Shown here piece after piece: positions 23,180 through 40,283 of a stretch of DNA of 64,000 bases. Numbering within the stretch: position 1 is the first letter of the stretch; every line of letters starts with the position of its first letter. The stretch comes from Marinicella marina (GTDB lineage Bacteria > Pseudomonadota > Gammaproteobacteria > Xanthomonadales > Marinicellaceae): assembly GCF_026410145.1 (NCBI RefSeq), contig NZ_JAPMLO010000004.1, one strand, 5' to 3'. The notes under the pieces were generated by a model. The model was not told the DNA's origin. It worked only from the letters and a program-made list of their open reading frames with translations, and did no database searches. The position numbers and the translations under genes are program-made.

Positions 23180-24625
23180 ATGACTTTGAAAACAGAAAAT
23201 AAATTCCATTTGTTACTTTTATTGACTGCTGTGTTTTTGACACAAAACACCCAAGCTGCGGTGCACATCAGCCAAAACAACCAAGGCCAAGCCATTGTTT
23301 TCCCCTATTTTACAGTGGCCAATGATTTGAATACATTATTCAGTATCAGTAATGAACAAAACACCGCCAAAGCAGTCAAAATCAATATCAGAGAAGGCAA
23401 AGGCGGCGATGCCATGTATTCTCTTAATCTCTATCTTGGCGCCCAAGATACTTGGACCATGGCCTTAGTTGAAACCGATGGATTCATCAACTTATTGACC
23501 GGTGATGAGTCCTGTGTAATCAATTTGGTTGCTCCAGATATTGAAAGTGCAGTTAATTGGGACTGGCAAACCGGCATGGTTGAAGTCATTGAAATGGGCA
23601 ACTTCTCCATTGAATCAGAACTTTTTTTCCCAAACCCATTCACCAATGACATCACCACCGAAGAAAATTGTCAGAACATCATCAGTGCTTGGACTGATAG
23701 TGGTGTATGGACATCTGACAGTTCCGATAATTTGAATCCAGTGTCCGGTGGACTGACCGGCCAGGTTTCGGTGTTTGATGTGGCCAGAGGGTTTACTTTT
23801 CAGGTACCATCAGTGACTTTGAATGACTTTTTTCCAAGTGGTTCAATCAATCACTTTGCACCCAACTCTGGTTTGCCTGATTTGAACAGTGGCGATAACA
23901 TCAGTTCGGTGCTTTACCAAGGGAACTTAATCACAACAGTTTGGCCAACTGGCTATGAAGCAGTCAGCGCCCTGTTGATGAAAACCAGCACCAGTAATGA
24001 TTTTACCCTTGAGGCTTTCATTGATGCCAAAAGTGAATGGGTGATCAGTTTTCCAACATTGAATTTTCACTTAAACAACAATCTCACCACAGAACCTTTT
24101 ATGACCAGTGACTTCAACACAGTACTGGAACCGGGCCAATTCTTTTTTTCACAATATACTGGTGTTCCAGTGATTGAACGCAGTGGTTTGTATGATCGCG
24201 ATGGAAGGTTCTATTTTACGGATTTATCCATTGTAGACCCGCCTCCACCACCTTCATTTACGGCACTGAAATTTGACAGCATGGTTAATACCACTGTAAT
24301 GATAGGAGTACTACCACCTTTCATTGATGGCGTTCGAACCTTCCCCCCTTCAACCATTTCTGGCGAACCCAGAGACAATGTTTTTCATTACTTTGTGGAC
24401 ACTTCATCCAACCCTAATCTTGATACAGGTAAACGCACCGAAAGAATTCAGTATCAAGTCAATGACCGCGGTATCGACCAACTTTCTCAAGCCACTCAAA
24501 ATTACCATGGTCTTCCCTTCATTGCTTTTGCCTACAGTCGTTATACAAATGCCAATGCACAACCTGGATTATTAGCCACTTATTCAAGTGCCTTGATGAA
24601 TCGCAGTGAAAGCAAAATTGATTGA
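23180..24625 (+). CDS. Secreted hypothetical protein (481 aa)
   Basis: Signal peptide LLLLLTAVFLTQNTQAA. No recognised motif. Contains a PPPPP segment. Confidence 0.45.
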   Translation: MTLKTENKFHLLLLLTAVFLTQNTQAAVHISQNNQGQAIVFPYFTVANDLNTLFSISNEQNTAKAVKINIREGKGGDAMYSLNLYLGAQDTWTMALVETDGFINLLTGDESCVINLVAPDIESAVNWDWQTGMVEVIEMGNFSIESELFFPNPFTNDITTEENCQNIISAWTDSGVWTSDSSDNLNPVSGGLTGQVSVFDVARGFTFQVPSVTLNDFFPSGSINHFAPNSGLPDLNSGDNISSVLYQGNLITTVWPTGYEAVSALLMKTSTSNDFTLEAFIDAKSEWVISFPTLNFHLNNNLTTEPFMTSDFNTVLEPGQFFFSQYTGVPVIERSGLYDRDGRFYFTDLSIVDPPPPPSFTALKFDSMVNTTVMIGVLPPFIDGVRTFPPSTISGEPRDNVFHYFVDTSSNPNLDTGKRTERIQYQVNDRGIDQLSQATQNYHGLPFIAFAYSRYTNANAQPGLLATYSSALMNRSESKID

Positions 24626-24815: not shown

Positions 24816-25577
24816 ATGATCATGCTGGTAAAAAACATATCCTTCATTGGCGTTATATTCACAGCCATGTTTATGATAAATGTTGTTCATGCACAAACAG
24901 CTTTCCTTGAACAAAACGGCTTAATCATAATTGAATTAGAGTCATTAACAGATATTCCAAATGGCTGGTCTGAGGAAAGCGTGTTCGATGAAATATCAGG
25001 GACCAGTTACCACCGTTATGCTGGTAATAACCAATTCAATAACCCGGGTGTGGACTTGTTTGAAGTGTTGATATTTATCCAAAACCCAGGTACCTATCAA
25101 TTTCGTTGGCGCAACTTAATTGCAAAGGGCGACTCAAACACCGATGCCAATGATTCTTGGCTCAGAATCATTGCTGATGCTTATTACGGCCAACAAGGCA
25201 ACGACAGCATTGTTTGTCCCAAAGGCTATGACCCAAACAACAATGACTGCCCAATTAACCTCGATGCCGACGGTGAAGTCACGCCTGAGGGGTCAGGCAG
25301 TAACGGCTGGTTTAAAGTCTATCGCAGTGGTTCGGGCTTATGGAAATGGAGCACCCGCACCAGTGACAATGATGCCCATGAGATCTTTGCCCGATTTGAT
25401 ACCAGCGGTTTGTATTTAATCCAAATTTCTGGCCGCTCCCAGAACCATGCCATTGACCGCATGGTTCTGAATGATGTTAATTATAACGGCGATCCAACTG
25501 ACTTGATTTTGCCCGAGTCAACAACCATCGATGCTGATTTGATTTTTGCTGATGGTTTTAACGGTGAATTCTTTTAA
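24816..25577 (+). CDS. Secreted hypothetical protein (253 aa; C-terminal DLIFADGFNGEFF tail)
   Basis: Signal peptide. No recognised motif. Shares its C-terminal tail with 10189..10764 and 52286..53728. Confidence 0.45.
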   Translation: MIMLVKNISFIGVIFTAMFMINVVHAQTAFLEQNGLIIIELESLTDIPNGWSEESVFDEISGTSYHRYAGNNQFNNPGVDLFEVLIFIQNPGTYQFRWRNLIAKGDSNTDANDSWLRIIADAYYGQQGNDSIVCPKGYDPNNNDCPINLDADGEVTPEGSGSNGWFKVYRSGSGLWKWSTRTSDNDAHEIFARFDTSGLYLIQISGRSQNHAIDRMVLNDVNYNGDPTDLILPESTTIDADLIFADGFNGEFF

Positions 25578-25593
25578 TCAATAGCACCTCAAA

Positions 25594-28500
25594 TCATTCT
25601 TTTTTGGTGGTTTTTTTTACTGCTTTCTTTTTGCTCGCTGACTTGTTCATCGCAGAACGTTTGGCAGCTTTGCTTTTGACCGTCTGACTTTCAGTTGTGT
25701 TTACCGTTCTGGTGGATTTTGAAAGACTGAGGTTCTTGATTTTTTGACTCAGTTCAGTCACCTGCTCCAGTACCTCATTATTGATATTAAGCTTCTTATT
25801 CATCGCTACCACAATCGGTACGAACGATGTTTCCAAAGTCTCAGACAGTGAAATCATCGCATCATCAAGACCAGGCAACGGCTCATTTGAGACGTTGACT
25901 TGTAAATTCAGTTTCTCTATAGCTTGACTCAATCGATCGCTGACAATTGACAACTGTTGTTCAGTTTGACTTTGAGATGCTTGAGATTGTTGCATCCACT
26001 GCCCAGTCAATTCACTCATGTCGGTCTTTAAAGCACCAATTTGACTGGCAATCTTGGTGGCGCCATCGGCCTCATCTCCAGCCAAAGCGTTGCGGATTTT
26101 AAATTCTGCTTTGATCGCCTGCCATCTTTCTTCATCTTCAGCATTCAAAGTACCTCTGAGTGCTTTCAATTTAAGTAAGTTTTCCTCAGCCCCAGTGGTC
26201 AACAGCTGCGCTTCACCCGCATAATGATCATCTATCAGCTGTTGCAGTTCATGCTGGTCCATCACTGGTACCACTTTCTCAGCCAATTTATTCATGTTTC
26301 GGTAACTGCCCTGTAATTTGAAAGGTGGTTCTTGTCGGTACCTGTCATCCATCGCAGCAGATGAAATGTACGCTTGATTGACTTTCAAGATCACTTCTTG
26401 GACTGTGAACAAGTGTTTTAAAACAGTAATGATTTCGTTGATTTCACTGCTGGCATAACTGTGAGACAAATCTGATGTAGCCACTTCTTTGCCTTTGGCC
26501 ATATCCATCAACAGGTATAAGTCATTCATCTCTCGCAGTGCCAGAGGAGCCAGCACCGGATTCGATGTCAATGAGTTTTCAATGTAACTCATAGCAAACA
26601 CATCCTCTTGTCCACCCAGAATGTCACCTAAGTTATAGACGTCGGCCCGATTGGCCAACATATCAGGAACCCTAAAGACTTCACCTGATTCGGTATACGG
26701 ATTACCCGCCATGATCACACAGAATTTTTTGCCACGCATGTCATAGGTTTTACTCATGCCGCGCCACACCCCTTCGATTTTACGGGTACCGTCACATAAC
26801 GAGATGAATTTCTGCAAGAACTCGGCATGGGTGTGCTGGATGTCATCCAAATACAACATCACATTATTCCCCATCTCCAATGCTAAATTAAGCTTTTCAA
26901 GCTCTTGTTTGGCTGTTGCATTGGGCGCATTGGCTGGATCCAATGATTTGACATCATGCCCCAATGAAGGACAGTTGATTTTCATAAAATTCAAACCCAA
27001 ACGGTTCGCTGTGTACTCCATCAAAGTGGTTTTGCCGTAGCCTGGCGGTGATATTAACAGCAACAAACCCATCAAATCACTGCGTTTGTTTTGTCCGGCG
27101 GCGCCCATCTGTTTGGCCAAATTATCACCAATGATGGGTAAATAAGACTGATTGATCAATTGGTTACGCACGAACGATGCCAATGGTCTGGCTTTGAAAG
27201 TTTCCAGCGCCATTTGTGCACGTTGTTCGTGCATCACGGTTTGTTTCATTTCACGGTATTCTTGGTATTCAGGCACCAGTTGTTGGTGATAATGGCTCAA
27301 ACGCTCCATGAACTCATCGAACTCAAATTTGAGTGTGCGATTTTTGATGCGACTGTGATCCCCCAATAGATCGTCTACCTGACAAGCCAAATCCAATGCC
27401 GAAGCATCGTAAGCCTTGCCCTGTTTTGCCAAAATCAGCACAGTGGCTTCATTGATGAAGCGCAGCATGTCCTGATTTATTTCATTGTCTTTGCGAATCA
27501 TGCCACTGAGCCAATAACCAATCAATTGCCACTGTTGTTTGGGGTCATCATTGAGCGCATCCAGCTCATTTTTGAAAGCCTTATCCTCTCCCACCGCGGT
27601 CAAATGATCATTCAGTTGTTTAACTAAATCTGCCGCATGTTTAGAGACTTGAAATGTTTTGGTCGGTGAATCATCAACGATATGGGCCAAAAGGAATTCA
27701 GCGGCCAACAGCATTTGTGCTGCGTTAAAGCGCAAATCATTCTGTAGATAAAAGGCGTCCATCTCCGCTTTGAATTCAACATACAAGTCTTGGCACATAG
27801 ATCGGTCACCCAAGGTTTTGGCAATTTTATTAGCAGTTTGAGCGCGCTGTGTATAGTGCTTTTGGTTTTTAACACTGCTGTGCAACCAAAAATAGCTAGC
27901 CAATGCCCGAGCACTGGGCCCAAACATCATCAAAGGCGCTGTTTGGTATATCTGCAGCAATTGGCTGATGATTTTACTGGCATCATGATCATGGATGCCT
28001 TTTTCATAGCCTTCTTGGTAACGCGGGTTGGCATAGGCCTTGACAAAATCAACCAATGCCTCTTCATCCAACGACACCAACTGATCTATGCTGCTGCCTG
28101 CTTCACCCTGAATGGCATCTTGAAAAATGTTGTAAGCCAAATACTCGGCTCGGTAAACCGAGTCATTTTCTGAGCTCATTGTTTGTGGCCAAAAGTCCTT
28201 GTAATCGTGTAGCTTTTGGTTATTCACAGGCTCATAAAAATCAGTCCCAGACAAATGAAAATACAGGGCATCATTCCTTGGCAAAATGGTCAAATCAAGT
28301 GACTGGGTGTTGACGCTGAAACGGTGTTTCCCCAATTTAATGTTCTTGCCACCGTCTTCAAATATGTCCTGCTTGTCCCTCAACGAACGTATGGCCTGCT
28401 CTTTGATGGCTTTTAGTCTGGCCTCTGTGTCATCGGCTTTGACACTGTCATCCAAGTCATGCAACTGACCGATCAGCTCCTTGACTTTATGAATCATGGG

Positions 28501-30915
28501 ATCGGAAGAATAATAGGTGTTCAATTGATCACTGTCGGTGAACTTCAAAGAACGCCGCTCTATACTTTTTAACACCCGAGTGGCTGCAGATTGTACATTC
28601 TCGGCTTTGCGTTGGCGTTGATCAATCAGACTTTGTTTCTTGTTTTCAAAGGTCTCGTGTAGTTCTTCGCGTTTGGTCAGTATTTGGTCTAAAAAGGCTT
28701 CGTTCTCACTGAAGTTAACCTCAAGCTCTTCCAACAACACCATCAAACGCGCCAACTGTTCATCACAACCATCAGGCGTTTCTGCCAGGGCCACCCCACT
28801 GGTGATGCTTTGCGAAAGGACTGCCAATTGAGCACCAAACTCAGCCACTGATTCAGTTGCTGACAGCTCCTTGCTGGTCAGCTTAGCATGCGCTTTGGTT
28901 TGATTGATCCGAGAGTATACTTGTGAAACTGACTCTAATATGGCGGTTTTCTGCAGCGTATCATCAATTTCTAAACCGTTGATGACCTCTGAGAGTGCAT
29001 CCAAACCCAAACTCATTTCATCCAATTCGTCCAACAAAGGCTTTAAATCTTTGACTGTTTTAATCTCAGCGGTTTTTTGGTGCACCTCATCGACCACCTG
29101 CTCATAATGCAACATGGCTTGTTCATCCGACAGGAACTGAATGGTTCTTTTACCCAGTGCCTCAATTTCATCATCCACTTGCAATGACAAGTCTTCAATC
29201 GCACTTAAATCAATATAACGGTACTCGCGCAATGACAACAAGTGGCCTTTTTGTCGTTTTAACTGCAACAAACCATCTACAAATGGTGCTGGCGTATCCC
29301 AATTAGCAATTTTGATTTCACGAAGTAATTGTTGTAAGTCATGCTGAGCCTCTTTCAACGCTTTGGCACTTTGTAGATTGATTGATTTGACCTTTTCAAA
29401 CTCGTCCAACACCAATTCTGATGTTTCACCAATCAAATCCAACTGTTCTGAGAAATCACCCACGGCTGAATTTTCCAGCCAATAATAACCATCCTTCACC
29501 CGCTGGATGTTTTTTATCAAATCCTCATAGACTTGAACACTGGGTTGTTGCTCACTGATCAGTTTGGAAATACCATATAGTTCTGAGATGCCTTGGACCA
29601 ATTCCGCATTTCCAATGGTTGATAATTCACTGTCATCTTTGCTTTGACTGGCACTGTATTCCTCACTGGTATAAGGCGTTTGCCAGATTTGCATGGGGTG
29701 TATCCGCGTCGCCTCAGTTGACTCGGCGCGAAAAATAATCATTTTGCCATCATCATATAATGAATAACCGTGACCAAAAATGGGATTTTGTAATTCCTTG
29801 CGGATGGTGTTGTAAGAATAAAGCGCCAGTTTTCCTTCCAGCTTTTCATAAAACACATACAGCACATCTTCGCCATTGGGTGCATTCCAGCGCCGTTTGA
29901 ACAACAAACCATCTACATCTTCAGCAAAGACTTTGGATTCACCACTTTGTAAGTAGTAACCACCAGGGAAAATGATGCCATGATCATTTGGCAACTGCAC
30001 ACAAGCATGTCCCAAGGCATCTATTCGCAAGACCTCATTGTTGCGGGTATTGAACACAAAATAACGCCAATCTTGTTCTTTGTAAGGCAAGATTTTTAAT
30101 AAAATCAAGGCATGGACTTTGGCATAGTAGATGTCGGCATCTTCCAAAGATTGATTCGGTTCATCAACCGCCTCTTGGTAAATACCCTCACCATCCTCGG
30201 TGTTATTCTCGACCTTGATGGTCAAATCACCACCGACGGTTTCAACAAAAACTTCATCCATGATTGATACATGAGGGTGACGGCCTTGAACGAATTGGTC
30301 TCGCTCGGCTTTGTGCCACTCAAAATCATAAGCCGGTGGTAATTCAATGTCGCGCTCACCGCGATCATCGATGTATTGCACTTCACCGTTGTTGCCTATG
30401 ACCCAACGAAATACCCTGATGTCGCCGATTTTTTCGCCAATTTGGAATGCCGCCAAGAGTTTTTGATCGACCACACGCAGCTGAATCAACTCGGCTTTTT
30501 TGTAGTAACTGTAGAGCTCTAAAAACTGTTTAACAAAAACCTCGTCAGCCAGGAATGAACCGGCCAATGGTTCCGCTTTGACTTCAAATTTTCCCTCGTT
30601 TTCATGCAGCGAATACAGCGCGAAAACGTCCTTTACTTGGGTGGCTTTTTTTAAACCAATAAACACATTGTAGCCAAACAACAATTGTCCATTGATTCGC
30701 ACCATATCACGTGGTGTGCAATTGTTTTCTGTTCTTACCCTGACCCGATCAACCACTTCAAGTACCGTTTTGCCGAATGTTGATTCACGCAATTGGTTCA
30801 AGCCAATGATTTTTTGTTCTAATTGTTTGTTTTGTTCCTCTAGGCGTTTGCGAATGACCTCATATGAGCCGCCACTGGCTACCGCTTGATTGATGGTGCT
30901 GTTGTTATCAGCCAT
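25594..30915 (-). CDS. Giant (1773 aa) protein with AAA_5 (MoxR/dynein-type) ATPase domain, long coiled-coil regions and Lys-rich C-terminal tail
   Basis: Single uninterrupted ORF. Walker A LLISPPGYGKTTL, Walker B VMLYLDDIQ, then FCVIMAGNP, which matches the AAA_5 pattern. C-terminal KSKAAKRSAMNKSASKKKAVKKTTKKE. Confidence 0.8.
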   Translation of the reverse strand: MADNNSTINQAVASGGSYEVIRKRLEEQNKQLEQKIIGLNQLRESTFGKTVLEVVDRVRVRTENNCTPRDMVRINGQLLFGYNVFIGLKKATQVKDVFALYSLHENEGKFEVKAEPLAGSFLADEVFVKQFLELYSYYKKAELIQLRVVDQKLLAAFQIGEKIGDIRVFRWVIGNNGEVQYIDDRGERDIELPPAYDFEWHKAERDQFVQGRHPHVSIMDEVFVETVGGDLTIKVENNTEDGEGIYQEAVDEPNQSLEDADIYYAKVHALILLKILPYKEQDWRYFVFNTRNNEVLRIDALGHACVQLPNDHGIIFPGGYYLQSGESKVFAEDVDGLLFKRRWNAPNGEDVLYVFYEKLEGKLALYSYNTIRKELQNPIFGHGYSLYDDGKMIIFRAESTEATRIHPMQIWQTPYTSEEYSASQSKDDSELSTIGNAELVQGISELYGISKLISEQQPSVQVYEDLIKNIQRVKDGYYWLENSAVGDFSEQLDLIGETSELVLDEFEKVKSINLQSAKALKEAQHDLQQLLREIKIANWDTPAPFVDGLLQLKRQKGHLLSLREYRYIDLSAIEDLSLQVDDEIEALGKRTIQFLSDEQAMLHYEQVVDEVHQKTAEIKTVKDLKPLLDELDEMSLGLDALSEVINGLEIDDTLQKTAILESVSQVYSRINQTKAHAKLTSKELSATESVAEFGAQLAVLSQSITSGVALAETPDGCDEQLARLMVLLEELEVNFSENEAFLDQILTKREELHETFENKKQSLIDQRQRKAENVQSAATRVLKSIERRSLKFTDSDQLNTYYSSDPMIHKVKELIGQLHDLDDSVKADDTEARLKAIKEQAIRSLRDKQDIFEDGGKNIKLGKHRFSVNTQSLDLTILPRNDALYFHLSGTDFYEPVNNQKLHDYKDFWPQTMSSENDSVYRAEYLAYNIFQDAIQGEAGSSIDQLVSLDEEALVDFVKAYANPRYQEGYEKGIHDHDASKIISQLLQIYQTAPLMMFGPSARALASYFWLHSSVKNQKHYTQRAQTANKIAKTLGDRSMCQDLYVEFKAEMDAFYLQNDLRFNAAQMLLAAEFLLAHIVDDSPTKTFQVSKHAADLVKQLNDHLTAVGEDKAFKNELDALNDDPKQQWQLIGYWLSGMIRKDNEINQDMLRFINEATVLILAKQGKAYDASALDLACQVDDLLGDHSRIKNRTLKFEFDEFMERLSHYHQQLVPEYQEYREMKQTVMHEQRAQMALETFKARPLASFVRNQLINQSYLPIIGDNLAKQMGAAGQNKRSDLMGLLLLISPPGYGKTTLMEYTANRLGLNFMKINCPSLGHDVKSLDPANAPNATAKQELEKLNLALEMGNNVMLYLDDIQHTHAEFLQKFISLCDGTRKIEGVWRGMSKTYDMRGKKFCVIMAGNPYTESGEVFRVPDMLANRADVYNLGDILGGQEDVFAMSYIENSLTSNPVLAPLALREMNDLYLLMDMAKGKEVATSDLSHSYASSEINEIITVLKHLFTVQEVILKVNQAYISSAAMDDRYRQEPPFKLQGSYRNMNKLAEKVVPVMDQHELQQLIDDHYAGEAQLLTTGAEENLLKLKALRGTLNAEDEERWQAIKAEFKIRNALAGDEADGATKIASQIGALKTDMSELTGQWMQQSQASQSQTEQQLSIVSDRLSQAIEKLNLQVNVSNEPLPGLDDAMISLSETLETSFVPIVVAMNKKLNINNEVLEQVTELSQKIKNLSLSKSTRTVNTTESQTVKSKAAKRSAMNKSASKKKAVKKTTKKE

Positions 30916-30998
30916 GCCTCACTCCAAAATACTGTAATTAAACGTTCCTTGCCAGCAGCAGAGCCAGAATCAACTGGCCCTGCTGGTATGCATCAACT

Positions 30999-33002
30999 TT
31001 AACTTTCGGTGTCTTGCTCATCGTTGCGAGACAATTTCTTGATCATTTGAGTGATGGTGTCTTTATCAAAACTCTTACCGTTACCCAAACTCATGACCTT
31101 AGCCACCGCAGCTTGTAAGATGTCGCTTTTACCAATGGCACCATCTACCGCTTTACCCACTGCCAACGAACTCATGAACTTCTCTAAGAAGTCACCATTG
31201 CCACCGACAATATCGATATTCGCTTCTTTTAAAGCCTCTGCCAGTACTTTGGCTTGGGTTTCAGCAATACCCGTATTGGCCTCAATCGCTTTCATGTTCT
31301 CAACATGCGACATGTCTAAGCCCATGCGAAACTCCTCATGTTCTCTGACCGTCTCATCCATGGTCGCCAGCGCCGCAAACTTCTCTTTCAAACCTCGTGC
31401 TTCTGCCGCATAGCGTTCTTCGATGGCTTGTGCTTCAGCCACTTTAATCTTCACTGCGACCATGGCTTGTTGTTCTTCACCTTGAGCATCCGCTTCTTTC
31501 ACCCGCACATTGGCCATGCCTATATCCTCAGCACCGACCGCCTCTGCTTTGAATTTCTCTGCCATCACAGCCGCTTCTGCCTCACCTTGTTTCTGATGAG
31601 CGGCGGCTTTGGCTTCTATGACTTTGGCTTCTGCCAAACCAGTGGCAGCCGCTTCCTCACGCACACCTTCAGCCAATCTGATTTTGGCATCGGCTTCTTT
31701 GGCTGCTGATTCACGTGCCGCCTCAGCCAGAGTGATGCGCTCACTGGCACGGTGTTTGGCTGTGGTTTCTTGTGCTTCGGCCGCTTTGATTTCCTTGATT
31801 AAATCTTGTTCTGCCAAAGCTTCAGCTGCAATCACCTGAGCTTGTTTGTTGCGTTTGGCTTCTTCCACCACCCGCAGTTCATTGATTTTTTCTTCTTGCT
31901 CAGCCACTGTTTTTTCTACCGCTATGCGTTCACGCACCACATCTGCAATGTTTTTCTTTTCAACCTCAAGGTCTTTTTCTTTGTTGATTTCTTGCAGCGC
32001 CACTTCACGTTCACGGCCAACAATTTCTAACTGTCTAACCTTAGTGACTTTTTCTTCTTCGATTGCCACCGCACGCATGCGGTTATTGGCCGCCACTTCA
32101 ACTTCTCGCTGTTTGTTTTCTTCCAGTACCATCAGTTCTTGATCGGTAGCAATCCTGGCTGTTTCTGCTTTCAGGCGTTCTTCACTTTCAATTTTTTCTT
32201 TTTCAGCTTCCTCGCGGGCTTTGACCGAAGCAATTTCGCGCATCTGCCTGGCCTCTGCATCGGCTTCAATGCGTTCCAACTCTAAAATTCGCTCCCTGGC
32301 TTCAACATCCCTTTTCTTGATTTTGGTTTCCTCTTCACGCTCAAACTCATTGGTGAGGATTTTTTGTTTCGCCGTTAACTCAGTGATTTTACGAATACCC
32401 TGGGCATCCAAGATGTTGTTCTCATCCAAAGACGAAATCGGCGTTTGCTCCAAATAGTCAATCGCCGCATCTTCCAACACATAACCATTCAAGTCTTTAC
32501 CAATGACCATGATGATTTCATCCCTGAAGCGATCACGTTCTTCATACAACTCCTCAAACTCAAGTTTTTTACCCACAGTTTTTAAAGCTTCTGAGAACTT
32601 GGCACTGAATAACTCTTCTATGGTGGCTTGTTTAGATGCCCGCTCACAACCAATCGCTTGTGCCACTTTCAGTACGTCTTCTTTGGTTTTATTAACTCGA
32701 ACAAAGAAGGTTACCTTGATATCCGCCCTGATGTTGTCCTTACAAATCAATCCATCTTGAGCCCGACGATCAATCTCAATGGTCTTGAGTGATATGTTCA
32801 TGAATTCCTTTTTATGAATAACTGGCCACACGGTGCGACCCGTAAAGGTCACTTCCGGTGTTTCTTTCATGGTGTTCACAATCATGGCCTGACCCTGCTC
32901 TACCTTTTGGTAGAACTTCATCACAATCAGGGCCAACCCGATGAGTGCCAACACCACCACCCCAGCATAGGTGGCTATGGCTATTAATAAGTCGCTATTC
33001 AT
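30999..33002 (-). CDS. Flotillin-family SPFH/band-7 protein (YqiK-like)
   Basis: N-terminal TM, SPFH core, and a roughly 350-aa E/A/K-rich coiled coil (EA repeats). Confidence 0.85.
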   Translation of the reverse strand: MNSDLLIAIATYAGVVVLALIGLALIVMKFYQKVEQGQAMIVNTMKETPEVTFTGRTVWPVIHKKEFMNISLKTIEIDRRAQDGLICKDNIRADIKVTFFVRVNKTKEDVLKVAQAIGCERASKQATIEELFSAKFSEALKTVGKKLEFEELYEERDRFRDEIIMVIGKDLNGYVLEDAAIDYLEQTPISSLDENNILDAQGIRKITELTAKQKILTNEFEREEETKIKKRDVEARERILELERIEADAEARQMREIASVKAREEAEKEKIESEERLKAETARIATDQELMVLEENKQREVEVAANNRMRAVAIEEEKVTKVRQLEIVGREREVALQEINKEKDLEVEKKNIADVVRERIAVEKTVAEQEEKINELRVVEEAKRNKQAQVIAAEALAEQDLIKEIKAAEAQETTAKHRASERITLAEAARESAAKEADAKIRLAEGVREEAAATGLAEAKVIEAKAAAHQKQGEAEAAVMAEKFKAEAVGAEDIGMANVRVKEADAQGEEQQAMVAVKIKVAEAQAIEERYAAEARGLKEKFAALATMDETVREHEEFRMGLDMSHVENMKAIEANTGIAETQAKVLAEALKEANIDIVGGNGDFLEKFMSSLAVGKAVDGAIGKSDILQAAVAKVMSLGNGKSFDKDTITQMIKKLSRNDEQDTES

Positions 33003-33098
33003 TGTTTATTTCTCCTTTATCAGTCTTTGCTATATTGTCCACAACCGAAGTTGTTACTTGTTGTTTCATGGTTTGTGTTTAAGACAGACCATTTATTT

Positions 33099-33800
33099 TT
33101 AATTTAATTCTTCTGCTTTGATGACCCAGTAACTGCCGTCTTCTTCATCGTATGATTTCAGTATGACCAAATCACCTTTGGTGATGTTATCAGACACTTT
33201 GGCTCTGACATCAAACAGCATCCCTGCGCCACCATCTTGGTACTCTGCTTGGCCGAAGCTCTCAGTGACAGAGCCCGTTTTAACCAAACACTCACTGCCT
33301 ATGAAAGAAACCTTGTTTCTGGCCGTGTACGACACAAAAGCACTTTTCAGAGGCCTGATGAATTGTGCCGTGACTGGTATGGCCAAAGCAAAACTGACCA
33401 ATAACAAAGCCGCACCAACCAACCACTGTAACAGCGCCAAAGGAATCAGTGGCATAACCACTGATGCCAAAATGTAACTGATCAACCAAGCCGAAGCCAC
33501 CAAAATCGAGACCACCACAGTCACAGGCACACCAGTCAGACCCCATTTCAACATAAAGCCGGTAATCCCTCTGAGACTTTCAGGGTCAAAATCAGGATCT
33601 ACCGTAGCACCTACATCGGCATCTACATCAAGCTCAATATCTGCGTCAACATCAACATCAAGATCGAAGTCAGCATCAAACATATCAATATCAACCGCAC
33701 CTAACATCGCCAATAACCAGTAAACAATGATGATTGCCAGTAAAAAGGTAAACACAATCACAGGAAAACTCGTTATGTTTGTTAAAAAAATTTCCATCAC
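33099..33800 (-). CDS. YqiJ-like NfeD-family membrane protein (DUF1449; TM region plus C-terminal OB-fold)
   Basis: N-terminal TM, acidic D-rich linker, further TM helices, and a C-terminal beta-rich domain GDLVILKSYDEEDGSYWVIKAE as in NfeD partners of flotillins. Overlaps upstream gene by 4 bp. Confidence 0.6.
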   Translation of the reverse strand: MMEIFLTNITSFPVIVFTFLLAIIIVYWLLAMLGAVDIDMFDADFDLDVDVDADIELDVDADVGATVDPDFDPESLRGITGFMLKWGLTGVPVTVVVSILVASAWLISYILASVVMPLIPLALLQWLVGAALLLVSFALAIPVTAQFIRPLKSAFVSYTARNKVSFIGSECLVKTGSVTESFGQAEYQDGGAGMLFDVRAKVSDNITKGDLVILKSYDEEDGSYWVIKAEELN

Positions 33801-34138
33801 AGCTCCTCATCAATATTTTTGACGTGCTCAATCAGTTTTTCTGCAGCTCGCCTTTTGACCTCAACAGGGTCATTGGTTTCTAATTCATACGCTTCGGCTA
33901 AAAAAGCCATGTCATCATCAGACAGTGAGATTGATAGACGCAGTCGTTTTGGTTTTCGCGACACACTCAGACCCAGAATTTGTCTGATTCTGTCAGACGG
34001 GTTGATGCTTCTGTCTAAAGCTTCTTTTCTGATCACATATTGGATTTTCTCACCCACATCGAAAGCCACCTGGGTGGCCTTCACCGCTTTCTTCTCCTTG
34101 GCCCATTTATTCAAGATTTGTTGTTTCTTATCAGTCAT
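33797..34138 (-). CDS. Small ribbon-helix-helix (CopG-like) DNA-binding protein
   Basis: C-terminal KRLRLSISLSDDDMAFLAEAYELETNDPVEVKRRAAEKLIEHV fits the RHH beta-alpha-alpha pattern. 113 aa. Confidence 0.4.
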   Translation of the reverse strand: MTDKKQQILNKWAKEKKAVKATQVAFDVGEKIQYVIRKEALDRSINPSDRIRQILGLSVSRKPKRLRLSISLSDDDMAFLAEAYELETNDPVEVKRRAAEKLIEHVKNIDEEL

Positions 34139-34269
34139 GCAGCCAATATTTCCCTGTCAACAATCCCTGTCGACACATCAACTGCATGGTCCTTAGCCTG
34201 ATAATAAATTTGATTCATGGGTTTCATTCATTCAACTCAAAAATAAGCATTAATAAAAGTTGCAACAGA

Positions 34270-34980
34270 TCATTCCTTGTCAATGATCCTTTTCAACACA
34301 TCTGCTGCATCTTCCGTGACTTGTTCAGAAACTTCATTCTGATGTTTTTCGGTCAACACTGGCTTGCGCTCATTAACCATTGCATCATCCACTTCATATT
34401 GTTCATCAAGGCTTTGCTGTTTTCTGCGTATCCTTTCCAAGGATCGTTTGGCAGATAACATTTTGCTGTCGGCTTGGTTGAAGTTTTTGGTAATGACTTC
34501 AGTCGCCTTTTGGATGTCCGCAGTGGTTTGTACCATTGCCACCTGCCGTTCCAGTTCTTTCAATGAACGTTCGGCATTTTCCATTTGTCGAGTCAAATGA
34601 CCTAAGTGCAGTTCATGTGACTTGAGTATGCCCGCCTCGGCTGCCAGGTCTTGTTCCAGTTCAACCATTTCAGTGGCCAAATCAAAAGCCAATATTTCAT
34701 CATTTTGACTCAAAGCCTTAATGATGCGCTGCTCATGCTCATCAACTTGCGACTTCATCAACTTAACTTTTCTAGAGCATTGTGATTCTTTGGCCAATGC
34801 GTCGCTGATGGCATGTTTGGCACTGCTTAAATTAACTTTGGCCACTTCAATTTGTTTTTCGTATATTTTATTACCAGTTGAATCCATAACCGCTTCACTC
34901 AATGCCCTGGAATCATCTCTGATGACTTGAATGATCTTATCTAAGATGTTCATTCCTGCACGTTTCTTATCACCACTCAT
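34270..34980 (-). CDS. PspA/IM30 family protein (YjfJ-like; bacterial ESCRT-III homologue)
   Basis: 236-aa all-helical coiled coil. The N-terminal pattern ILDKIIQVIRDDSRALSEA parallels PspA/YjfJ. Confidence 0.75.
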   Translation of the reverse strand: MSGDKKRAGMNILDKIIQVIRDDSRALSEAVMDSTGNKIYEKQIEVAKVNLSSAKHAISDALAKESQCSRKVKLMKSQVDEHEQRIIKALSQNDEILAFDLATEMVELEQDLAAEAGILKSHELHLGHLTRQMENAERSLKELERQVAMVQTTADIQKATEVITKNFNQADSKMLSAKRSLERIRRKQQSLDEQYEVDDAMVNERKPVLTEKHQNEVSEQVTEDAADVLKRIIDKE

Positions 34981-35384
34981 TTTAAGAAGTCCTCCATGGC
35001 CGATACCACATCAACAGCGTTTTCGTTCAACATCACCACCTCTTCCACCACTTTATCTAACTCAGAACTGACCGATAAAGCACCGAAAAGCACATACCGA
35101 TCGCCTACCCTGGCGTAAGATGACAATGGTATTGAAATGCTGGTATCAAGCATCATTTCTAACATCTCAGTGCGCCTGTCTGCTCTGATTTCATCCTCGG
35201 TCCATAAATAGATGATACAAATGATTTGAAATTGAGTTTGCGTAATAAACACCGGAAAACCATCAAACCCATTGATCTCAACCTGTAACACTTCTACTTC
35301 CCCAGTGATTCTTTGGCAATCAAAAGTAAAGCCTTCCGTGGTTCTGTGTTGAGATAATTTAATGGCAAAATCCTCTGTGTTCAT
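34977..35384 (-). CDS. YjfI-like DUF2170 protein
   Basis: 135 aa immediately 5' of the PspA/YjfJ-like gene with a 4-bp overlap, as in the E. coli yjfI-yjfJ pair. Confidence 0.5.
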   Translation of the reverse strand: MNTEDFAIKLSQHRTTEGFTFDCQRITGEVEVLQVEINGFDGFPVFITQTQFQIICIIYLWTEDEIRADRRTEMLEMMLDTSISIPLSSYARVGDRYVLFGALSVSSELDKVVEEVVMLNENAVDVVSAMEDFLK

Positions 35385-35419
35385 ATCGTTTTTCTCTCCT
35401 TCATCTGCTCAATGCATGA

Positions 35420-35452
35420 TGACATAATATGTCACAATGACATAATATGTCA
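35420..35452. promoter_or_regulatory. Two tandem copies of perfect 15-bp palindrome TGACATAATATGTCA (putative operator) upstream of yjfI-pspA operon
   Basis: 35420..35434 and 35438..35452 are identical, with 7-1-7 inverted-repeat symmetry. Further TGACAT/ATGTCA-like half-sites follow at 35464-35490. Sits 36-68 bp 5' of the yjfI-like start on the minus strand. Confidence 0.6.
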
Positions 35453-35583
35453 ATGTGCATGAAGTCACATATGAACTGTATTTGACATCTAGGCAGGTAT
35501 GAAAATGAATTAAATAAGGGGCTTATATGATTGTAAAACTTAACAATAAATAAAAAAATTACCCGAAAAGTAAGTGGCTGAAA

Positions 35584-36570
35584 TTAATTTTGATTATTTT
35601 CTGGTTCAATTTCATGCAGCGCTGCGCTTGAGTCATCACTGACCTGCTGCATGTGTTCAAGGGTCTGATCAATCAATACTTTGGCTTGTTCTAATTTGGC
35701 CGTATCGATTCTGAAGTGCTCGGCATGCTTTTGCTGGCGTTGATTGTTGTTGGCCATCGCCACACCAGCTGCCACATCCAGAGCGGCTGTGGTGGTCATC
35801 ACCGTTTGGTCAATATCACGGATCAAGCTTTGGTTTTGTTTGATGATCAATTCTACGGTCATCATCGCTTGTCTGGCGATCAAGGATTGTTGTTGTAGGT
35901 CGATCAAGCGTTGTTGCACTGGGCCAAGTAATTCATCATCAATGACCGCTAAGTGATGGGCACTGATTGTTAAGGTATCTGCGCTGCGTAGTTTGAGTTG
36001 TTGTTCGAAGACAGTCACGAAATCAAAGCTTTGGGTCAGTTTTTGCAAACCCGCCATCAACGCTTCATGATCGCCGTTGAGAATCTGATTGTCGCGCATC
36101 AACTGCCGCTTTTCAGCATTTAACTGTTCCACCAATCCAACCATCACTTTGCGTTTTTCCGGGAAATTATCCAACCACATTTGATAAGCTGATTCTCGCC
36201 AAGAAAACAACAACAAAAAACGTTCCCTCCAGCTCAATCTGCGTTGAGGAGGTTGCATGTCAGCCACCTGTTGCGAAAGTTGAGCCAGTAACTTTGATAC
36301 CTTACCACCGGCATCGGTATCTGCCATCAATTGTTGCAAAGGATGAATCAAGCGCTTATTCAACTGCCAATAAGCCGCCTGCTCCTCTGCCCCCAACTCA
36401 AATAAGGCATTCCTGACTTGATCAACCAACTGTAAATCATTGAAATCCATCGCCAGCACCCAATCAACCAATTGATCAGCAGCTTTTTCTATGTATGCCT
36501 CAGACTCATGACTGATCATTGCATGATCAAGTGTGCTTAATTGTTTAAAAGTTGCCAGTGCAGCCTTCAT
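35584..36570 (-). CDS. TelA-like toxic-anion-resistance family protein
   Basis: 328-aa helical protein. LVDQVRN segment matches the conserved LLDQVRN region of TelA/KlaB/YaaN. Confidence 0.5.
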   Translation of the reverse strand: MKAALATFKQLSTLDHAMISHESEAYIEKAADQLVDWVLAMDFNDLQLVDQVRNALFELGAEEQAAYWQLNKRLIHPLQQLMADTDAGGKVSKLLAQLSQQVADMQPPQRRLSWRERFLLLFSWRESAYQMWLDNFPEKRKVMVGLVEQLNAEKRQLMRDNQILNGDHEALMAGLQKLTQSFDFVTVFEQQLKLRSADTLTISAHHLAVIDDELLGPVQQRLIDLQQQSLIARQAMMTVELIIKQNQSLIRDIDQTVMTTTAALDVAAGVAMANNNQRQQKHAEHFRIDTAKLEQAKVLIDQTLEHMQQVSDDSSAALHEIEPENNQN

Positions 36571-36695: not shown

Positions 36696-37106
36696 ATGAA
36701 ACAATTTCACCTCAGTATCAAAACCCCAGGACGTGGATATTATTTAATCACTGACCAAATCAATCGGTGTGTTGAAGAAGCTCTGGCTGGGCTTGATGTG
36801 GGTTTGTTGCATGTATTCTTGCAGCATTCATCGGCCAGTCTGACCATCAACGAAAATGCCGATCCGACGGTACGTGAGGATTTCAAGAACTTTGAGGAAA
36901 AGTTGGTACCTAGGAATTTTCCCTATCGGCATAACTATGAGGGTGATGATGACATGCCTGCGCACATAAAATCTTCACTGATGGGCTGTCAATTATCCAT
37001 ACCAATCAGCGGTGGACGTTTGGCACTGGGCACTTGGCAGGGAATTTATTTGTGTGAGCACCGCGATCAACCACATCAAAGAAATATGGTATTAACCATC
37101 TATTAA
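36696..37106 (+). CDS. YjbQ/UPF0047 secondary thiamine-phosphate synthase-like protein
   Basis: 136 aa. HSSASLTINENADPTV, MGCQLSIPISGGRLALGTWQGIYLCEHR are conserved YjbQ blocks. Confidence 0.8.
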   Translation: MKQFHLSIKTPGRGYYLITDQINRCVEEALAGLDVGLLHVFLQHSSASLTINENADPTVREDFKNFEEKLVPRNFPYRHNYEGDDDMPAHIKSSLMGCQLSIPISGGRLALGTWQGIYLCEHRDQPHQRNMVLTIY

Positions 37107-37481
37107 ACTGCAACCAGTTGGCTGCAACCAGTTGGCAGAAATCAATTGGGGGATGACACCTGATTTGAGGTGTTTTTATCAGTGCTTCCAGTCTCTAACG
37201 TGCTGACGGCATAGCTTGCAGCAATTACCACAATTACCGCAAATACAATGTATCTTTTATAACCTTTGAATTGTCTGATCATATTTGTTTTTTACAGTCT
37301 TAAAAAATTAATTAATAATCTCAATAAACATGTTTAAAATAAACCTAGTTTCATGAAGGCATTGTGAATCAATTGTTAACACGGTCTGAACCAACTGGTA
37401 TCAACGATTGTTACCATTGGCGCATAAAAAGTCTTAAGTTAACAACACTCAAACACAACAACAGAACTTAAATTAGGGATT

Positions 37482-38429
37482 ATGAAGAATAAATCAAGTG
37501 TAAAAGTAGGACTTGCTCTTGGCAGTGGCTCTGCCAGAGGCATGTCACACATCGGTGTGATTAAAGCTTTGGAGGCGATGGGCATCAAGGCAGACATTGT
37601 GGCGGGTTGTTCTGTGGGCAGTATGGTTGGTGCCAGTTATGCCACCAACAATTTATCCCACTTAGAGGAATGGGCGTTATCAATGAACGAATCAAAGGTT
37701 CGTTCTTTCCTCAGCCTCAACTTCAATGCCTCTGGATTCATCAATTCGATGAAGTTAAAGAAGCTTTTTGAACATGCCATTGGCCTTGAATCATTGAAGT
37801 TCAAAGACATGGACAGACCGTTTGGCGCAGTGGCAACCGACTTAAGTACCGGCAAAGAGGTTTGGTTGAATGAAGGTTCAGTGCATGATGCTTTGTGGTC
37901 ATCGATGGCTTTTCCGGGACTTTTTCCCAGTGTCAAACACGGTAACAAGTGGTTGGTTGATGGCGGCTTAGTCAACCCCGTACCCGTCTCTTTGTGTCGC
38001 GCCATGGGCGCTGAGAAAGTCATTGCAGTCAATCTCAATGCCGATATCATTAACAGTTACAAAGCCGTCAGCGATGAAGATGAAGAAGATGACTCATTAC
38101 CTGAGGATCCATTGGCTGATCAGGATGATGCTGGCCTGTGGGACAAAACCAAAGCGGGCTTTGAGAAAGCCGTTAAATTAATCAGTGCCGATGGCAGCAA
38201 AGTCAAAGAACCCAAAGGCATCGATGTGATTTCTAATTCCATTCACATCATGTCCTCGCATTTGACCCGCAGCAGATTAGCCGGCGAGCCACCTGATGTG
38301 TTATTGCAGCCACGGTTAACAGATGTTGGGCTGTTAGAGCTGCACAAATCAAAAGGGTGTATTGAGGAAGGTAAAAAGAGCGTTGAGCGAATGTCTGAAG
38401 AAATTAAATTCAGAATTTTTGGCGAATAA
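37482..38429 (+). CDS. Patatin-like phospholipase
   Basis: GSGSARG oxyanion motif, GCSVGS (GxSxG) nucleophile, DGG catalytic Asp. Confidence 0.85.
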   Translation: MKNKSSVKVGLALGSGSARGMSHIGVIKALEAMGIKADIVAGCSVGSMVGASYATNNLSHLEEWALSMNESKVRSFLSLNFNASGFINSMKLKKLFEHAIGLESLKFKDMDRPFGAVATDLSTGKEVWLNEGSVHDALWSSMAFPGLFPSVKHGNKWLVDGGLVNPVPVSLCRAMGAEKVIAVNLNADIINSYKAVSDEDEEDDSLPEDPLADQDDAGLWDKTKAGFEKAVKLISADGSKVKEPKGIDVISNSIHIMSSHLTRSRLAGEPPDVLLQPRLTDVGLLELHKSKGCIEEGKKSVERMSEEIKFRIFGE

Positions 38430-38436
38430 TTGAGTT

Positions 38437-39702
38437 ATGTCCGCTGGCAACAAATCAACCATAGAACTACCGATTAATTTGTCACTGGCTTTGGGTGCCT
38501 ACACCACAAAGATATGGGTAGGATCTGACAAGACGGAGTTAAATGTGCTGCTTGATACGGGCAGCAGCACCCTGGCCATTGATGCCGAAGTTTATCAGGC
38601 TGGTGCTGACCAATCTTTACAAGCAACCCAATACGCTCAAAGCGTCGTTTATGGTAAAGGTGGCTGGGCCGGACCGGTGATTCGCACTGAGATAACGCTT
38701 GATCACAGCGACCAATATTTACTCAATGATGCGCCCTTGGCCCTGACCAAGAGCGCTACAAAAAATGATTTTCAAAATGCGGATGGTATTTGGGGCTTGG
38801 CCTATCACCATTTGAACAAAGCTTATGATGTCAGTTCATCACTTGAGCAAATCATACCACCACAAAAAACTACCCATCCCTGGCCATATACCGAACAAGT
38901 AAAGGAAATCGGTGTTCATGGATTCAAGAAATATTTACACCAATTTCCAGAACATGACATCACCCCTACTTTTACTGCCTTCGAAGAAAACAACATCATC
39001 AACAACCAATTTGCACTGAGTACCAATCGCTCCATTGTCTACGTACCCCAAGCAGGCATGAGTCAGCATGAAATCGCTGCACATGCAATGAATCGAGGTT
39101 TGTTCCAGATTGGTGTGACAGCCACCACACAAGAAAAAATCAGCATGGCAGTGGTGCATGATGCTTATTACAATGCTGATTTAATTGCTGTGCGTGTTGC
39201 AGGCTTTGGTGCTTGTAAGGCACCACCGCTAGAGGCTGATAAACTCAATAGTTTTTTCTCTAATGCCATCATAGATTCAGGCTGTAGTTTTTTGGTACTA
39301 CAAAAACAGCTGTATGAATATGTATTGAATTGTTTTGAAAAACTCAATCCCACATTCAGACCTGCACTTGAGGCAGCACAACAAGCATTCAGTCAAAATA
39401 AACCCTATAAAAACAATCAATTGGATCTCAGTCAGTGGCCAATTTTGACCTTTAAATTTGTCGGCACAGATTCTGAATCAATCGAATTAGAGCTACCGCC
39501 ACAATGTTATTGGCAGGAACACGCCAAAAGTCCTGATAATTGGATGTTTATGTTGATGAACCAAATGCCTCAATGGCCCAATCAAACCATCTGCGGACTG
39601 CCACTTATGAACAATTACCAATGTATTTTTGACCGCTCAGATCAGCAAAACGGTAGCATTCACTGGCTAAAGAAAGCTGTTCTAGCGCCAGATAAAAAAT
39701 AA
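38437..39702 (+). CDS. Pepsin-like (family A1) aspartic peptidase, bacterial shewasin-like, no signal peptide
   Basis: Two catalytic motifs with hydrophobic context: VLLDTGSSTLAI and AIIDSGCSFLVL. Flap-like YGKGGWAG. 421 aa, bilobal spacing. Confidence 0.7.
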   Translation: MSAGNKSTIELPINLSLALGAYTTKIWVGSDKTELNVLLDTGSSTLAIDAEVYQAGADQSLQATQYAQSVVYGKGGWAGPVIRTEITLDHSDQYLLNDAPLALTKSATKNDFQNADGIWGLAYHHLNKAYDVSSSLEQIIPPQKTTHPWPYTEQVKEIGVHGFKKYLHQFPEHDITPTFTAFEENNIINNQFALSTNRSIVYVPQAGMSQHEIAAHAMNRGLFQIGVTATTQEKISMAVVHDAYYNADLIAVRVAGFGACKAPPLEADKLNSFFSNAIIDSGCSFLVLQKQLYEYVLNCFEKLNPTFRPALEAAQQAFSQNKPYKNNQLDLSQWPILTFKFVGTDSESIELELPPQCYWQEHAKSPDNWMFMLMNQMPQWPNQTICGLPLMNNYQCIFDRSDQQNGSIHWLKKAVLAPDKK

Positions 39703-39782
39703 CATTAAGGTCATAACGACAATTAATTGACACCATTCAAATACAATTCATGTTCTTTTAAAACTAACTATAATCGACACGG

Positions 39783-40283
39783 ATGCATAAAAAAATACGC
39801 TTCATATTTACCCTTCTGATATCGACACTGATATTTCAGAGCCCAGTTAAAGCCAGTTTTAAACCTACTTGGTGGGGCGCATCAGCTGGACAAATCAATG
39901 TGTTCAGAGAAAACCAGTTTAAAAACAATTTCTATGGATTAGAGGTCAGATTTACACCCATCACTCAATGGTCCTTGACCCCTTCCCTGGGGTATCAATG
40001 GAGTGACAGTGGTATCAGTTACTTTTACTCGGGATTGAGTTATGACATTGACCTATCAGACCGTTGGACTTTCGATGTACATTCTGGTGTCGGCCTGTAT
40101 GACGATGGTCAGTTCTTAAATTTGGGGCACACGGTACAATTCCGCTCGGGCATTGAGTTTGATTACCAGCTGACACCAAAACAAAAGCTTGGTATCGTTA
40201 TCAATCATTTTTCTAACAGCCGTTTATCTGCTGTTAATCCAGGTACTGAGTCAGTTTCATTGATTTATTTGAATAAATTTTGA
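39783..40283 (+). CDS. PagL-like outer-membrane lipid A 3-O-deacylase / acyloxyacyl hydrolase family protein
   Basis: Signal peptide, amphipathic beta-strand pattern, and INHFSNS (H-x-S-N catalytic motif of PagL family). Confidence 0.55.
   Translation: MHKKIRFIFTLLISTLIFQSPVKASFKPTWWGASAGQINVFRENQFKNNFYGLEVRFTPITQWSLTPSLGYQWSDSGISYFYSGLSYDIDLSDRWTFDVHSGVGLYDDGQFLNLGHTVQFRSGIEFDYQLTPKQKLGIVINHFSNSRLSAVNPGTESVSLIYLNKF

Follow-up and report, generated by a model that had tools for sequence, protein, structure and literature searches.

Among the described systems, the closest to the locus studied here is the bacABCDEF operon of Pseudomonas aeruginosa (PA3732–PA3727, PA14_16140–16200) (PMC2587700, PMC10948618). 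Deletion of PA3731, which encodes its PspA-like protein, leads to biofilm, swarming, rhamnolipid and virulence defects, and the protein is induced by osmotic shock (PMC2587700). The six bac genes are co-transcribed as judged by reverse transcription PCR, and a bacA transposon mutant accumulates BacB–F 6–13-fold (PMC10948618). Ravi et al. (2024; PMC11237479) described an operon that combines CesT/Tir (YjfI) and PspA with further genes, including a YqiJ/YuaF protein with three transmembrane segments and sometimes a phospholipase D (PLD), as well as abbreviated flotillin–YqiJ–(ATPase) operons across bacteria, with the ATPase present ‘in some cases’; their account of this operon class makes no mention of a ribbon-helix-helix (RHH) regulator, an operator or TelA. 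Here we analyse a 64,000-nucleotide stretch of Marinicella marina DNA (assembly GCF_026410145.1, contig NZ_JAPMLO010000004.1; the whole stretch is referred to as the window). Seven consecutive open reading frames (ORFs), all on the minus strand and confirmed at positions 25594–36570, encode from 5′ to 3′ a TelA-like protein, YjfI, PspA, a predicted tandem RHH protein, YqiJ-like and flotillin-like proteins and a giant ATPase. We conclude that this locus is very probably a member of the bac-type membrane-stress operon family. An initial annotation, made from the window alone, had proposed an undescribed system; the operon is the one described by Ravi et al. (2024; PMC11237479), the same as bacABCDEF. 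The envelope-stress role it suggested fits the published bac data (PMC2587700, PMC10948618, PMC12041424).

The window locus shares with the bac-type class a DUF2170 protein as the first gene of the operon, an adjoining YjfJ-type PspA, a YqiJ protein with three transmembrane segments, a flotillin composed of a transmembrane segment, an SPFH domain and a coiled coil and, directly downstream of the flotillin, an AAA+ ATPase with an N-terminal DUF3686 (a putative β-propeller). The optional last gene of the class, a PLD/HKD hydrolase (BacF) found ‘in some Proteobacteria’, is not at the 3′ side of the giant. In Pseudomonas loci with the same gene order, the first gene scores 339–361 bits against the NCBIfam BacA equivalog (cut-off 300) and the gene after the giant encodes a PLDc_2 protein; a PLD gene is found in 10 loci altogether. 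It is because of these BacA scores and this shared order that we equate the family with P. aeruginosa bacABCDEF. The published papers do not describe the domains of BacE, which we infer to be the DUF3686–AAA+ giant.

The individual assignments differ in how they were reached. Pfam matches the families named in the initial annotation for TelA, DUF2170 and PspA_IM30, and gives nothing usable at E ≤ 10 for the 667-, 233- and 113-residue proteins, so that the flotillin, YqiJ and RHH labels needed independent support. YjfI (135 residues, 34977–35384; DUF2170, E = 2.5e-32), a short BacA-like, CesT-type chaperone, matches E. coli YjfI with E = 6e-8. It aligns with the BacA profile over positions 89–203 only, at 50 bits against the cut-off of 300, and because it is a short form it is not a BacA equivalog. 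The ESCRT-III-like PspA protein (236 residues, 34270–34980; PspA_IM30, E = 1e-17) is 25% identical to E. coli YjfJ over 180 residues (E = 3e-11) and gives no significant alignment with E. coli PspA; by these comparisons it is of the YjfJ/BacB type. A canonical Psp system (PspF/PspABC) was considered and rejected: the intergenic regions have no σ54-like site, the neighbours are not PspF, PspB or PspC, and the PspA protein has no significant match to E. coli PspA.

The 667-residue protein (30999–33002), the divergent BacD equivalent, has one N-terminal transmembrane segment, an SPFH domain and a long Glu/Ala-rich coiled coil. A PDB sequence search with it gave no match; its close homologues either contain PF01145 or have YqiK/flotillin as their name, and a profile of 79 syntenic flotillin partners matches E. 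coli YqiK with 183 bits over the SPFH and coiled-coil parts. The 233-residue protein (33099–33800), a short-NfeD inner-membrane protein and the BacC equivalent, has three transmembrane segments, an acidic loop and a C-terminal OB-like part, and the corresponding partner profile finds E. coli YqiJ with 27 bits (E = 2e-10). Homologue names, E. coli profile matches and transmembrane counts thus back both labels.

Relatives of the giant were collected in two samples. The genome sample took one genome per species, with alignments spanning 28–100% identity. At least 585 loci matched, so that at least 585 species-level genomes carry a relative, and 80 were kept, from Gamma-, Beta- and Zetaproteobacteria, Myxococcota, Actinomycetota, Acidobacteriota and one Clostridia metagenome-assembled genome. 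For the metagenome sample, the most remote members (∼ 29% identical to the window giant) served as seeds of a scan that contributed 80 further loci. ORFs of the loci were called and searched with iterated hidden Markov models (HMMs) built from the window proteins, and the counts refer to loci in which 3.2 kb or more of sequence precedes the giant, i.e. 80 genome and 52 metagenome loci (132 in all; L numbers denote individual loci). The yqiJ-like and flotillin-like genes lie directly upstream of the giant on the same strand in 80/80 genome and 49/52 metagenome loci (129/132), often with 4-bp overlaps; six genome loci flagged by our script as lacking flotillin actually have 4–8-bp overlaps. The sole exceptions are three metagenome loci (L095, L105 and L157), where neither flotillin nor yqiJ is found despite 4 kb or more of upstream DNA.

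The remaining genes are less constant. PspA is found in 38/80 genome and 15/52 metagenome loci (∼ 40% of the 132), YjfI in 38/80 and 8/52, the tandem RHH in 16/80 and 4/52, and TelA of either type in 15/80 and 7/52. No genome locus has one of PspA and YjfI without the other; the two are directly upstream or divergent, and among the taxon-named genome loci only Gamma- and Betaproteobacteria have PspA. Flotillin/YqiJ accompany the giant with no PspA nearby in about 60% of the loci, among them all those from actinomycetes, myxobacteria and acidobacteria. At least five named bacterial lineages share the yqiJ–flotillin–giant triad as an invariant core, and the six genes yjfI, pspA, tandem RHH, yqiJ-like, flotillin-like and giant keep a conserved order. 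The obligate partners of the ATPase are the SPFH/NfeD pair, not PspA, and YjfI–PspA is accessory. The initial annotation had named a recurrent linkage of the giant to flotillin, PspA or TelA as a point on which its proposal would stand or fall. Linkage to flotillin recurs (129/132), that to PspA (∼ 40%) and TelA (22/132) in part only, and the picture of a giant ‘added’ to E. coli-like modules is reversed: the triad with the giant is the core and YjfI–PspA the add-on. In seven metagenome loci (L131, L140, L143, L154, L160, L165 and L168) pspA lies directly upstream of yqiJ with no detectable DUF2170 gene; these may contain the second CesT-like family mentioned by Ravi et al.

The giant (1773 residues, 25594–30915; BacE equivalent) has no transmembrane segment and is predicted to be cytoplasmic. 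Its sequence agrees to 100% with the NCBI entry from Marinicella sp. S1101 / M. marina. Pfam places DUF3686 at residues 32–478 (E = 7e-198) and DUF7902 at 599–681, and beyond a helical part there is one AAA domain at 1285–1405, matched by PF00004 (1.9e-7), AAA_22 (6e-7) and AAA_5 (1.4e-5). The Walker A (SPPGYGKTT), Walker B (LYLDDIQH), sensor-1-like (GNPY) and NR motifs are invariant in 41 sequences down to 30% identity. PDB sequence searches with the C-terminus and with a full-length profile gave P-loop-local matches only (RuvB, VAT, p97, NVL). Judged from its motifs, the giant is a genuine but very divergent AAA+ module whose clade is assignable in neither direction. Its earlier description as ‘AAA_5 clade, not Vps4-like’ has to be withdrawn: there is no specific AAA_5 match, and PF00004 and AAA_22 score better. 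Membership of the AAA_5/MoxR–dynein group is likewise unsupported, as the giant has no specific best match to AAA_5-type ATPases.

Databases name this protein ‘DNA repair ATPase’, a label also carried by the Pfam description of DUF3686, and if it were taken at face value the adjacency of membrane genes would be functionally meaningless. A weak local P-loop similarity to RuvB and the nuclease-like PLD neighbour in some operons point the same way. The similarity to RuvB, however, is confined to ∼ 35 residues at the P-loop, the giant has no detected DNA-binding or nuclease domain, and across phyla 129/132 loci retain its order with the two membrane proteins. We regard a DNA-repair function as very improbable.

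Alternatively, the giant could work solely on the PspA polymer, as a disassembly motor of the Vps4 type, with flotillin and YqiJ merely as its membrane platform. The field regards the bacterial counterpart of Vps4 as missing (PMC7619361), PspA belongs to the operon of the giant in the window as well as in ∼ 40% of loci, the best Pfam AAA match of the giant is the classical PF00004, and its weak PDB matches include p97, VAT, NVL and Vps4. Yet no MIT-like domain was detected in the giant, the ∼ 60% of loci described above pair it with flotillin/YqiJ where no PspA is nearby, and a Marinicellaceae relative of the window locus (L084) keeps the RHH gene, yqiJ, flotillin and the giant without yjfI–pspA. 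We consider a motor dedicated to PspA unlikely.

The 113-residue protein encoded at 33797–34138 is a member of a narrow family that is highly conserved (87 clusters). Its AlphaFold2 model, with a predicted local distance difference test score (pLDDT) of 78.7, contains two consecutive β-α-α units (strands at residues 22–25 and 69–72), in keeping with the RHH label it had received. Foldseek found no significant match for the model in the PDB; the sole RHH-type structures among the top matches, TraY and single-chain Arc, had TM-scores of 0.35–0.41, which are not significant. The gene is present in 16/86 genome-set loci. It directly follows pspA in 13 of 15 related loci, the exceptions being L018, where it lies downstream of the giant, and L084, which has no pspA. 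In L038, L051, L056 and L076 a yjfI–pspA–rhh unit is divergent from yqiJ–flotillin–giant.

Two exact copies of the palindrome ATGACATAATATGTCA (core GACAT-N3-ATGTC; 35419–35434 and 35437–35452, 18 bp apart) lie between the TelA-like gene and yjfI, in a gap of 199 bp, and the core occurs nowhere else in the 64-kb window. The duplicated palindrome noted in the initial annotation is therefore real, but it stands between the first and second genes and not at the 5′ end of the array. The best σ70-like promoter in 25.3–36.9 kb (TTGACA-18-TATTAT, 11/12 matches, minus strand, 35424–35453) has its −35 hexamer within operator copy 1 and its −10 hexamer inside copy 2. A scan for the σ54 consensus gave chance-level results, with no site in either relevant intergenic region.

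In the window alone the operator count is not significant (2 observed versus 2.9 expected with one mismatch allowed), so that its significance derives from cross-genome co-occurrence only. With one mismatch allowed, GACAT-N3-ATGTC occurs 34 times in 364 kb of loci with the RHH gene versus 7 times in 1.6 Mb of loci without it. The sites stand at the operon start in 15/16 RHH-containing loci, with 1–4 copies each, nearly all within ∼ 100 bp upstream of the first gene and often including TTGACA; the 16th locus, L018, has degenerate copies. Where the operon is divergent, the sites are in the shared intergenic region (L038, L051, L076; L056 has one site there). The 70 loci without the RHH gene contain one comparable operon-proximal perfect site, a single GACATAATATGTC at 6777–6789 of the Pseudoalteromonas ardens locus L037, ∼ 300 bp upstream of yqiJ; here the gene for the regulator may lie in another part of the genome. 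The Marinicellaceae relative L084 (4779–14262) consists of TelA-like gene, operator, RHH, yqiJ, flotillin and giant. Since it retains RHH and operator without yjfI–pspA, the RHH/operator pair is independent of the PspA dyad. With the gene and operator co-occurring in 15/16 loci, the idea of a dedicated RHH regulator gains strong support, and the 113-residue tandem RHH protein is likely the repressor of the operon, acting via the GACAT-N3-ATGTC operator.

The loci that have yjfI and no RHH gene point to a second mode of control. In all 23 of them YjfI/BacA carries an N-terminal extension of ∼ 65 residues with the invariant motif KSSAxYQRxxRxRLRxQGLVKKEVWILPE, and 12 of 18 extension segments match the Pfam family PF11455 ‘MazE-like’ (best E = 9e-4). 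Extension and separate RHH gene do not overlap (23 versus 15 loci). Extension loci have another repeated palindrome, T[TC]ACATGT[AG]A (TTACATGTAA), in 2–3 copies at the promoter; 35 of 36 exact copies are found no more than 160 bp upstream of bacA, distributed over 19 of the 23 loci, as opposed to none in RHH loci and one in 1.03 Mb of loci without yjfI. Loci that combine the extension and this second operator include L001, L005, L006, L008, L010, L012, L015, L016, L020, L024, L034, L043, L045, L046 and L050, and in P. aeruginosa TTACATGTGA repeats lie upstream of bacA.

An hhalign comparison of the BacA extension with the tandem-RHH family revealed no similarity; at this level of comparison the two regulators are analogous, not detectably homologous. 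The extension is a probable DNA-binding N-terminal domain of BacA, and a DNA-binding BacA N-terminus would explain the derepression seen in the bacA mutant. Wallart et al. crystallized a CesT-like BacA of 139 residues and proposed a σ54 site upstream of the short ORF (PMC10948618). The crystallized protein is without the N-terminal extension, and for both the 139-residue BacA and the σ54 proposal the start codon used seems to have been annotated too far downstream. We infer that both operon subtypes are autorepressed by an RHH-type module, separate in the window and fused to the chaperone in Pseudomonas. In the papers that we read on this operon we found no description of the RHH/operator pair, of the BacA extension with its second operator or of the recurrence of TelA.

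TelA recurs in a less regular way. The window-type TelA-like gene (328 residues, 35584–36570, minus strand; Pfam TelA, E = 1.3e-22) is confined to loci of the Marinicellaceae type (the window, M. rhabdoformis L083, L084 and L099), upstream of the operator each time. HMM iteration seeded with it found TelA in 0/82 loci; unbiased neighbour clustering then revealed canonical TelA (E = 6e-72) downstream of the giant in 12 Lysobacteraceae loci, a different subtype from that of the window. In these (L054, 15352–17198; L014, L017, L021–L023, L025, L035, L040, L041, L055 and L077) the giant is followed by a 234-residue protein without a Pfam match and then by TelA, with two 4-bp overlaps. Marinicella itself is a member of the order Lysobacterales. 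In Stenotrophomonas, trpF and a PALP (trpB-like) gene enclose the entire module. Eight further metagenome loci have TelA upstream of yqiJ or downstream of the giant, and TelA of either type is found in 22/132 loci (∼ 17%) at varying positions; it is a recurrent but optional partner.

Is the TelA-like protein then an integral, co-regulated seventh component? Its gene is conserved directly upstream in the Marinicella relatives, including L099 and also L084, which has lost yjfI–pspA, and the coupling of canonical TelA to the giant through 4-bp overlaps in the Lysobacteraceae, together with the metagenome loci, speaks for a functional link. On the other hand, TelA is not present in ∼ 83% of loci, the two subfamilies take different positions, in L083 the TelA-like gene follows an FHA gene by 45 bp, and in the window, L083, L084 and L099 promoter and operator lie downstream of the TelA-like gene, in a gap of 126–199 bp. 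Integral membership is conceivable but somewhat doubtful. The TelA-like gene in the window is probably an accessory that is transcribed as a separate unit, upstream of both operator and promoter. Its proposed place as the 5′ member of the array holds in so far as TelA recurs, and does not hold for control, as the gene is outside the operator-controlled promoter.

Taken together, we favour with moderate confidence a bac-type membrane-stress operon of flotillin/YqiJ and giant that is switched by the RHH protein. How it might work can be sketched as a flotillin-centred motor, a model that we offer tentatively. The single-pass flotillin and the NfeD-like YqiJ with its three transmembrane segments would form an SPFH cage or microdomain at the cytoplasmic face of the inner membrane, a step drawn by analogy with the HflK/C and QmcA–YbbJ cages cited in PMC13086221. 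The soluble giant would dock on this assembly via its N-terminal DUF3686 (β-propeller) and coiled-coil part, and its divergent AAA+ module would use ATP to assemble, remodel or recycle it. In Proteobacteria the ESCRT-III-like PspA, chaperoned by YjfI, would join the system, and where PspA is present the giant may likewise act on the YjfJ-type ESCRT-III polymer. The joint activity would repair or reshape the stressed membrane. The tandem RHH protein would bind the two GACAT-N3-ATGTC palindromes over the −35 and −10 elements and repress yjfI through to the giant; membrane stress would relieve the repression, possibly via the YjfI/PspA pair. The TelA-like protein would be a lineage-specific accessory under separate control.

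We go one step further only as a speculation, and a rather doubtful one: that the giant is a dedicated, ATP-driven remodeller of flotillin/NfeD cages, and of YjfJ-type ESCRT-III polymers where these are present, with its expression set by a chaperone-coupled RHH switch (the tandem RHH protein here, the BacA N-terminal domain in Pseudomonas). If true, this would be an energy-dependent bacterial SPFH/ESCRT-III membrane-repair machine and the counterpart of Vps4 that the field considers missing.

Four observations weigh against the account that we favour. Deletion of the P. aeruginosa flotillin (PaFlo3 = BacD) reduces biofilm by only ∼ 20% (PMC13086221), and since this effect is slight the bac phenotypes would be mild or conditional. 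No DUF3686 protein has a known biochemical function, PDB searches gave no solved relative, and a literature search for DUF3686 found no papers. The RHH model has no significant PDB match by Foldseek (TraY and Arc, TM-scores of 0.35–0.4). Finally, a strong hairpin separates the flotillin and giant genes, and the single transcript in Marinicella is a prediction. The visible cues to transcription in the window are short gaps or overlaps plus one strong promoter. The spacings across the array are, from 5′ to 3′, 199, −4, 131, −4, 96 and 83 bp, with the 4-bp overlaps at yjfI/pspA and at RHH gene/yqiJ; the initial annotation gave the 131-, 96- and 83-bp gaps and the two overlaps correctly and left out the 199 bp that separate the TelA-like gene from yjfI. 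The hairpin (flotillin–giant spacer, 30916–30998) is GC-rich with a 12-bp stem and no U-tract (RNA fold, −28.7 kcal/mol, z = −2.44), and it may be an attenuator or mRNA-stability element that modulates expression of the giant.

Giant ATPases are common in defence systems, and an anti-phage module, abortive-infection or envelope-targeted, in which the giant senses infection and the membrane proteins or the PLD nuclease-like BacF serve as effectors, has also to be weighed. A PLD-family gene with weak resemblance to NucT, DrmC and DpdK does close some operons, and PA3728–PA3732 are upregulated in all phage-infected P. aeruginosa samples (PMC12041424); but canonical Psp systems are also phage-induced without being immunity systems, and the window has no PLD gene. 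PADLOC gave no genuine match for the seven proteins (PspA against the LmuB coiled coil, E = 5e-4, is taken as spurious), no relatives were found in 2.9 million viral contigs, and 13 of 72,556 plasmid records carry one, mostly megaplasmids or chromids. The module is stably located between trpF and trpB in Stenotrophomonas, and the flanks of the window, which also include a TonB-dependent receptor gene, contain housekeeping or envelope genes and no defence island. The envelope-targeted anti-phage alternative raised at the outset thus finds no support from PADLOC, viral contigs or genomic context, and we hold an anti-phage function to be quite unlikely compared with a membrane-stress operon.

As to the immediate surroundings of the array, two plus-strand ORFs are convergent to the giant (23180–24625, 481 residues; 24816–25577, 253 residues); neither has a Pfam match, and the nearer, directly downstream of the giant, is not a PLD gene. 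Divergent from the TelA-like gene, the plus strand at 36696–40283 encodes UPF0047/YjbQ, a patatin-like phospholipase, an aspartyl-protease-like protein and a PagL lipid A deacylase. The aspartyl-protease-like protein is of eukaryotic type (PF00026, E = 3e-10), and a pepsin-like protein is unusual in a bacterium. This neighbourhood, lipid- and envelope-modifying in character, may be related to the array or merely adjacent to it. The sole Rfam/ARAGORN match in the window is a tRNA-Met (CAT) on the minus strand at 59890–59966.

The system is widespread, in at least 585 species-level genomes of Proteobacteria, Myxococcota, Actinomycetota and Acidobacteriota, and affects biofilm formation and virulence in P. 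aeruginosa. As its invariant partners are flotillin and NfeD, not PspA, the biochemistry of the ATPase is best begun with flotillin. The regulation is directly testable, with two mutually exclusive regulator/operator pairs, and the probable DNA-binding N-terminus of BacA was omitted by both the published crystal structure and the σ54 model.

Comparison with better known systems places the locus as follows. Four of the window proteins have detectable homologues in E. coli YjfI, YjfJ, YqiJ and YqiK. In E. coli, however, the pairs yjfIJ(KLMC) and yqiJK are unlinked, yjfIJ lies with polyamine-related genes, and there is no DUF3686 giant by yqiJK. The HflK/HflC–FtsH and QmcA–YbbJ cages resemble the window in the genetic coupling of an SPFH scaffold to an AAA+ machine or an NfeD partner; unlike FtsH, the giant has no protease domain or transmembrane segment, and the two are related only by the generic AAA+ fold. 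As in ESCRT-III/Vps4, a PspA-family protein is encoded with an AAA+ ATPase, but the giant has no detected MIT domain and tracks flotillin rather than PspA. F-plasmid TraY and engineered single-chain Arc have two RHH units per chain that form a pseudo-dimer, as predicted for the 113-residue protein, whereas there is no sequence similarity, the structural matches are not significant and the biological context is another one.

The closest comparison remains that with bac itself. Both operons encode a DUF2170/BacA protein, PspA-like BacB, YqiJ-like BacC, flotillin-like BacD and then the giant, the presumed BacE. The window differs in its short YjfI without the ∼ 65-residue MazE-like extension, in a separate tandem-RHH gene after pspA, in a GACAT-N3-ATGTC operator instead of the bac-type TTACATGTAA, in a σ70-like promoter where a σ54 type was proposed for bac, and in having a TelA-like gene upstream and no PLD (BacF) gene. 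The class of Ravi et al. (2024) has the same gene set as the window, and our census confirms its abbreviated operons; where they report a link to the ATPase ‘in some cases’, starting from the ATPase makes the flotillin/YqiJ pair nearly obligatory (129/132). The window locus thus adds an ordinary new member, distinct as a variant in its regulation, to a known operon family of unsolved mechanism.

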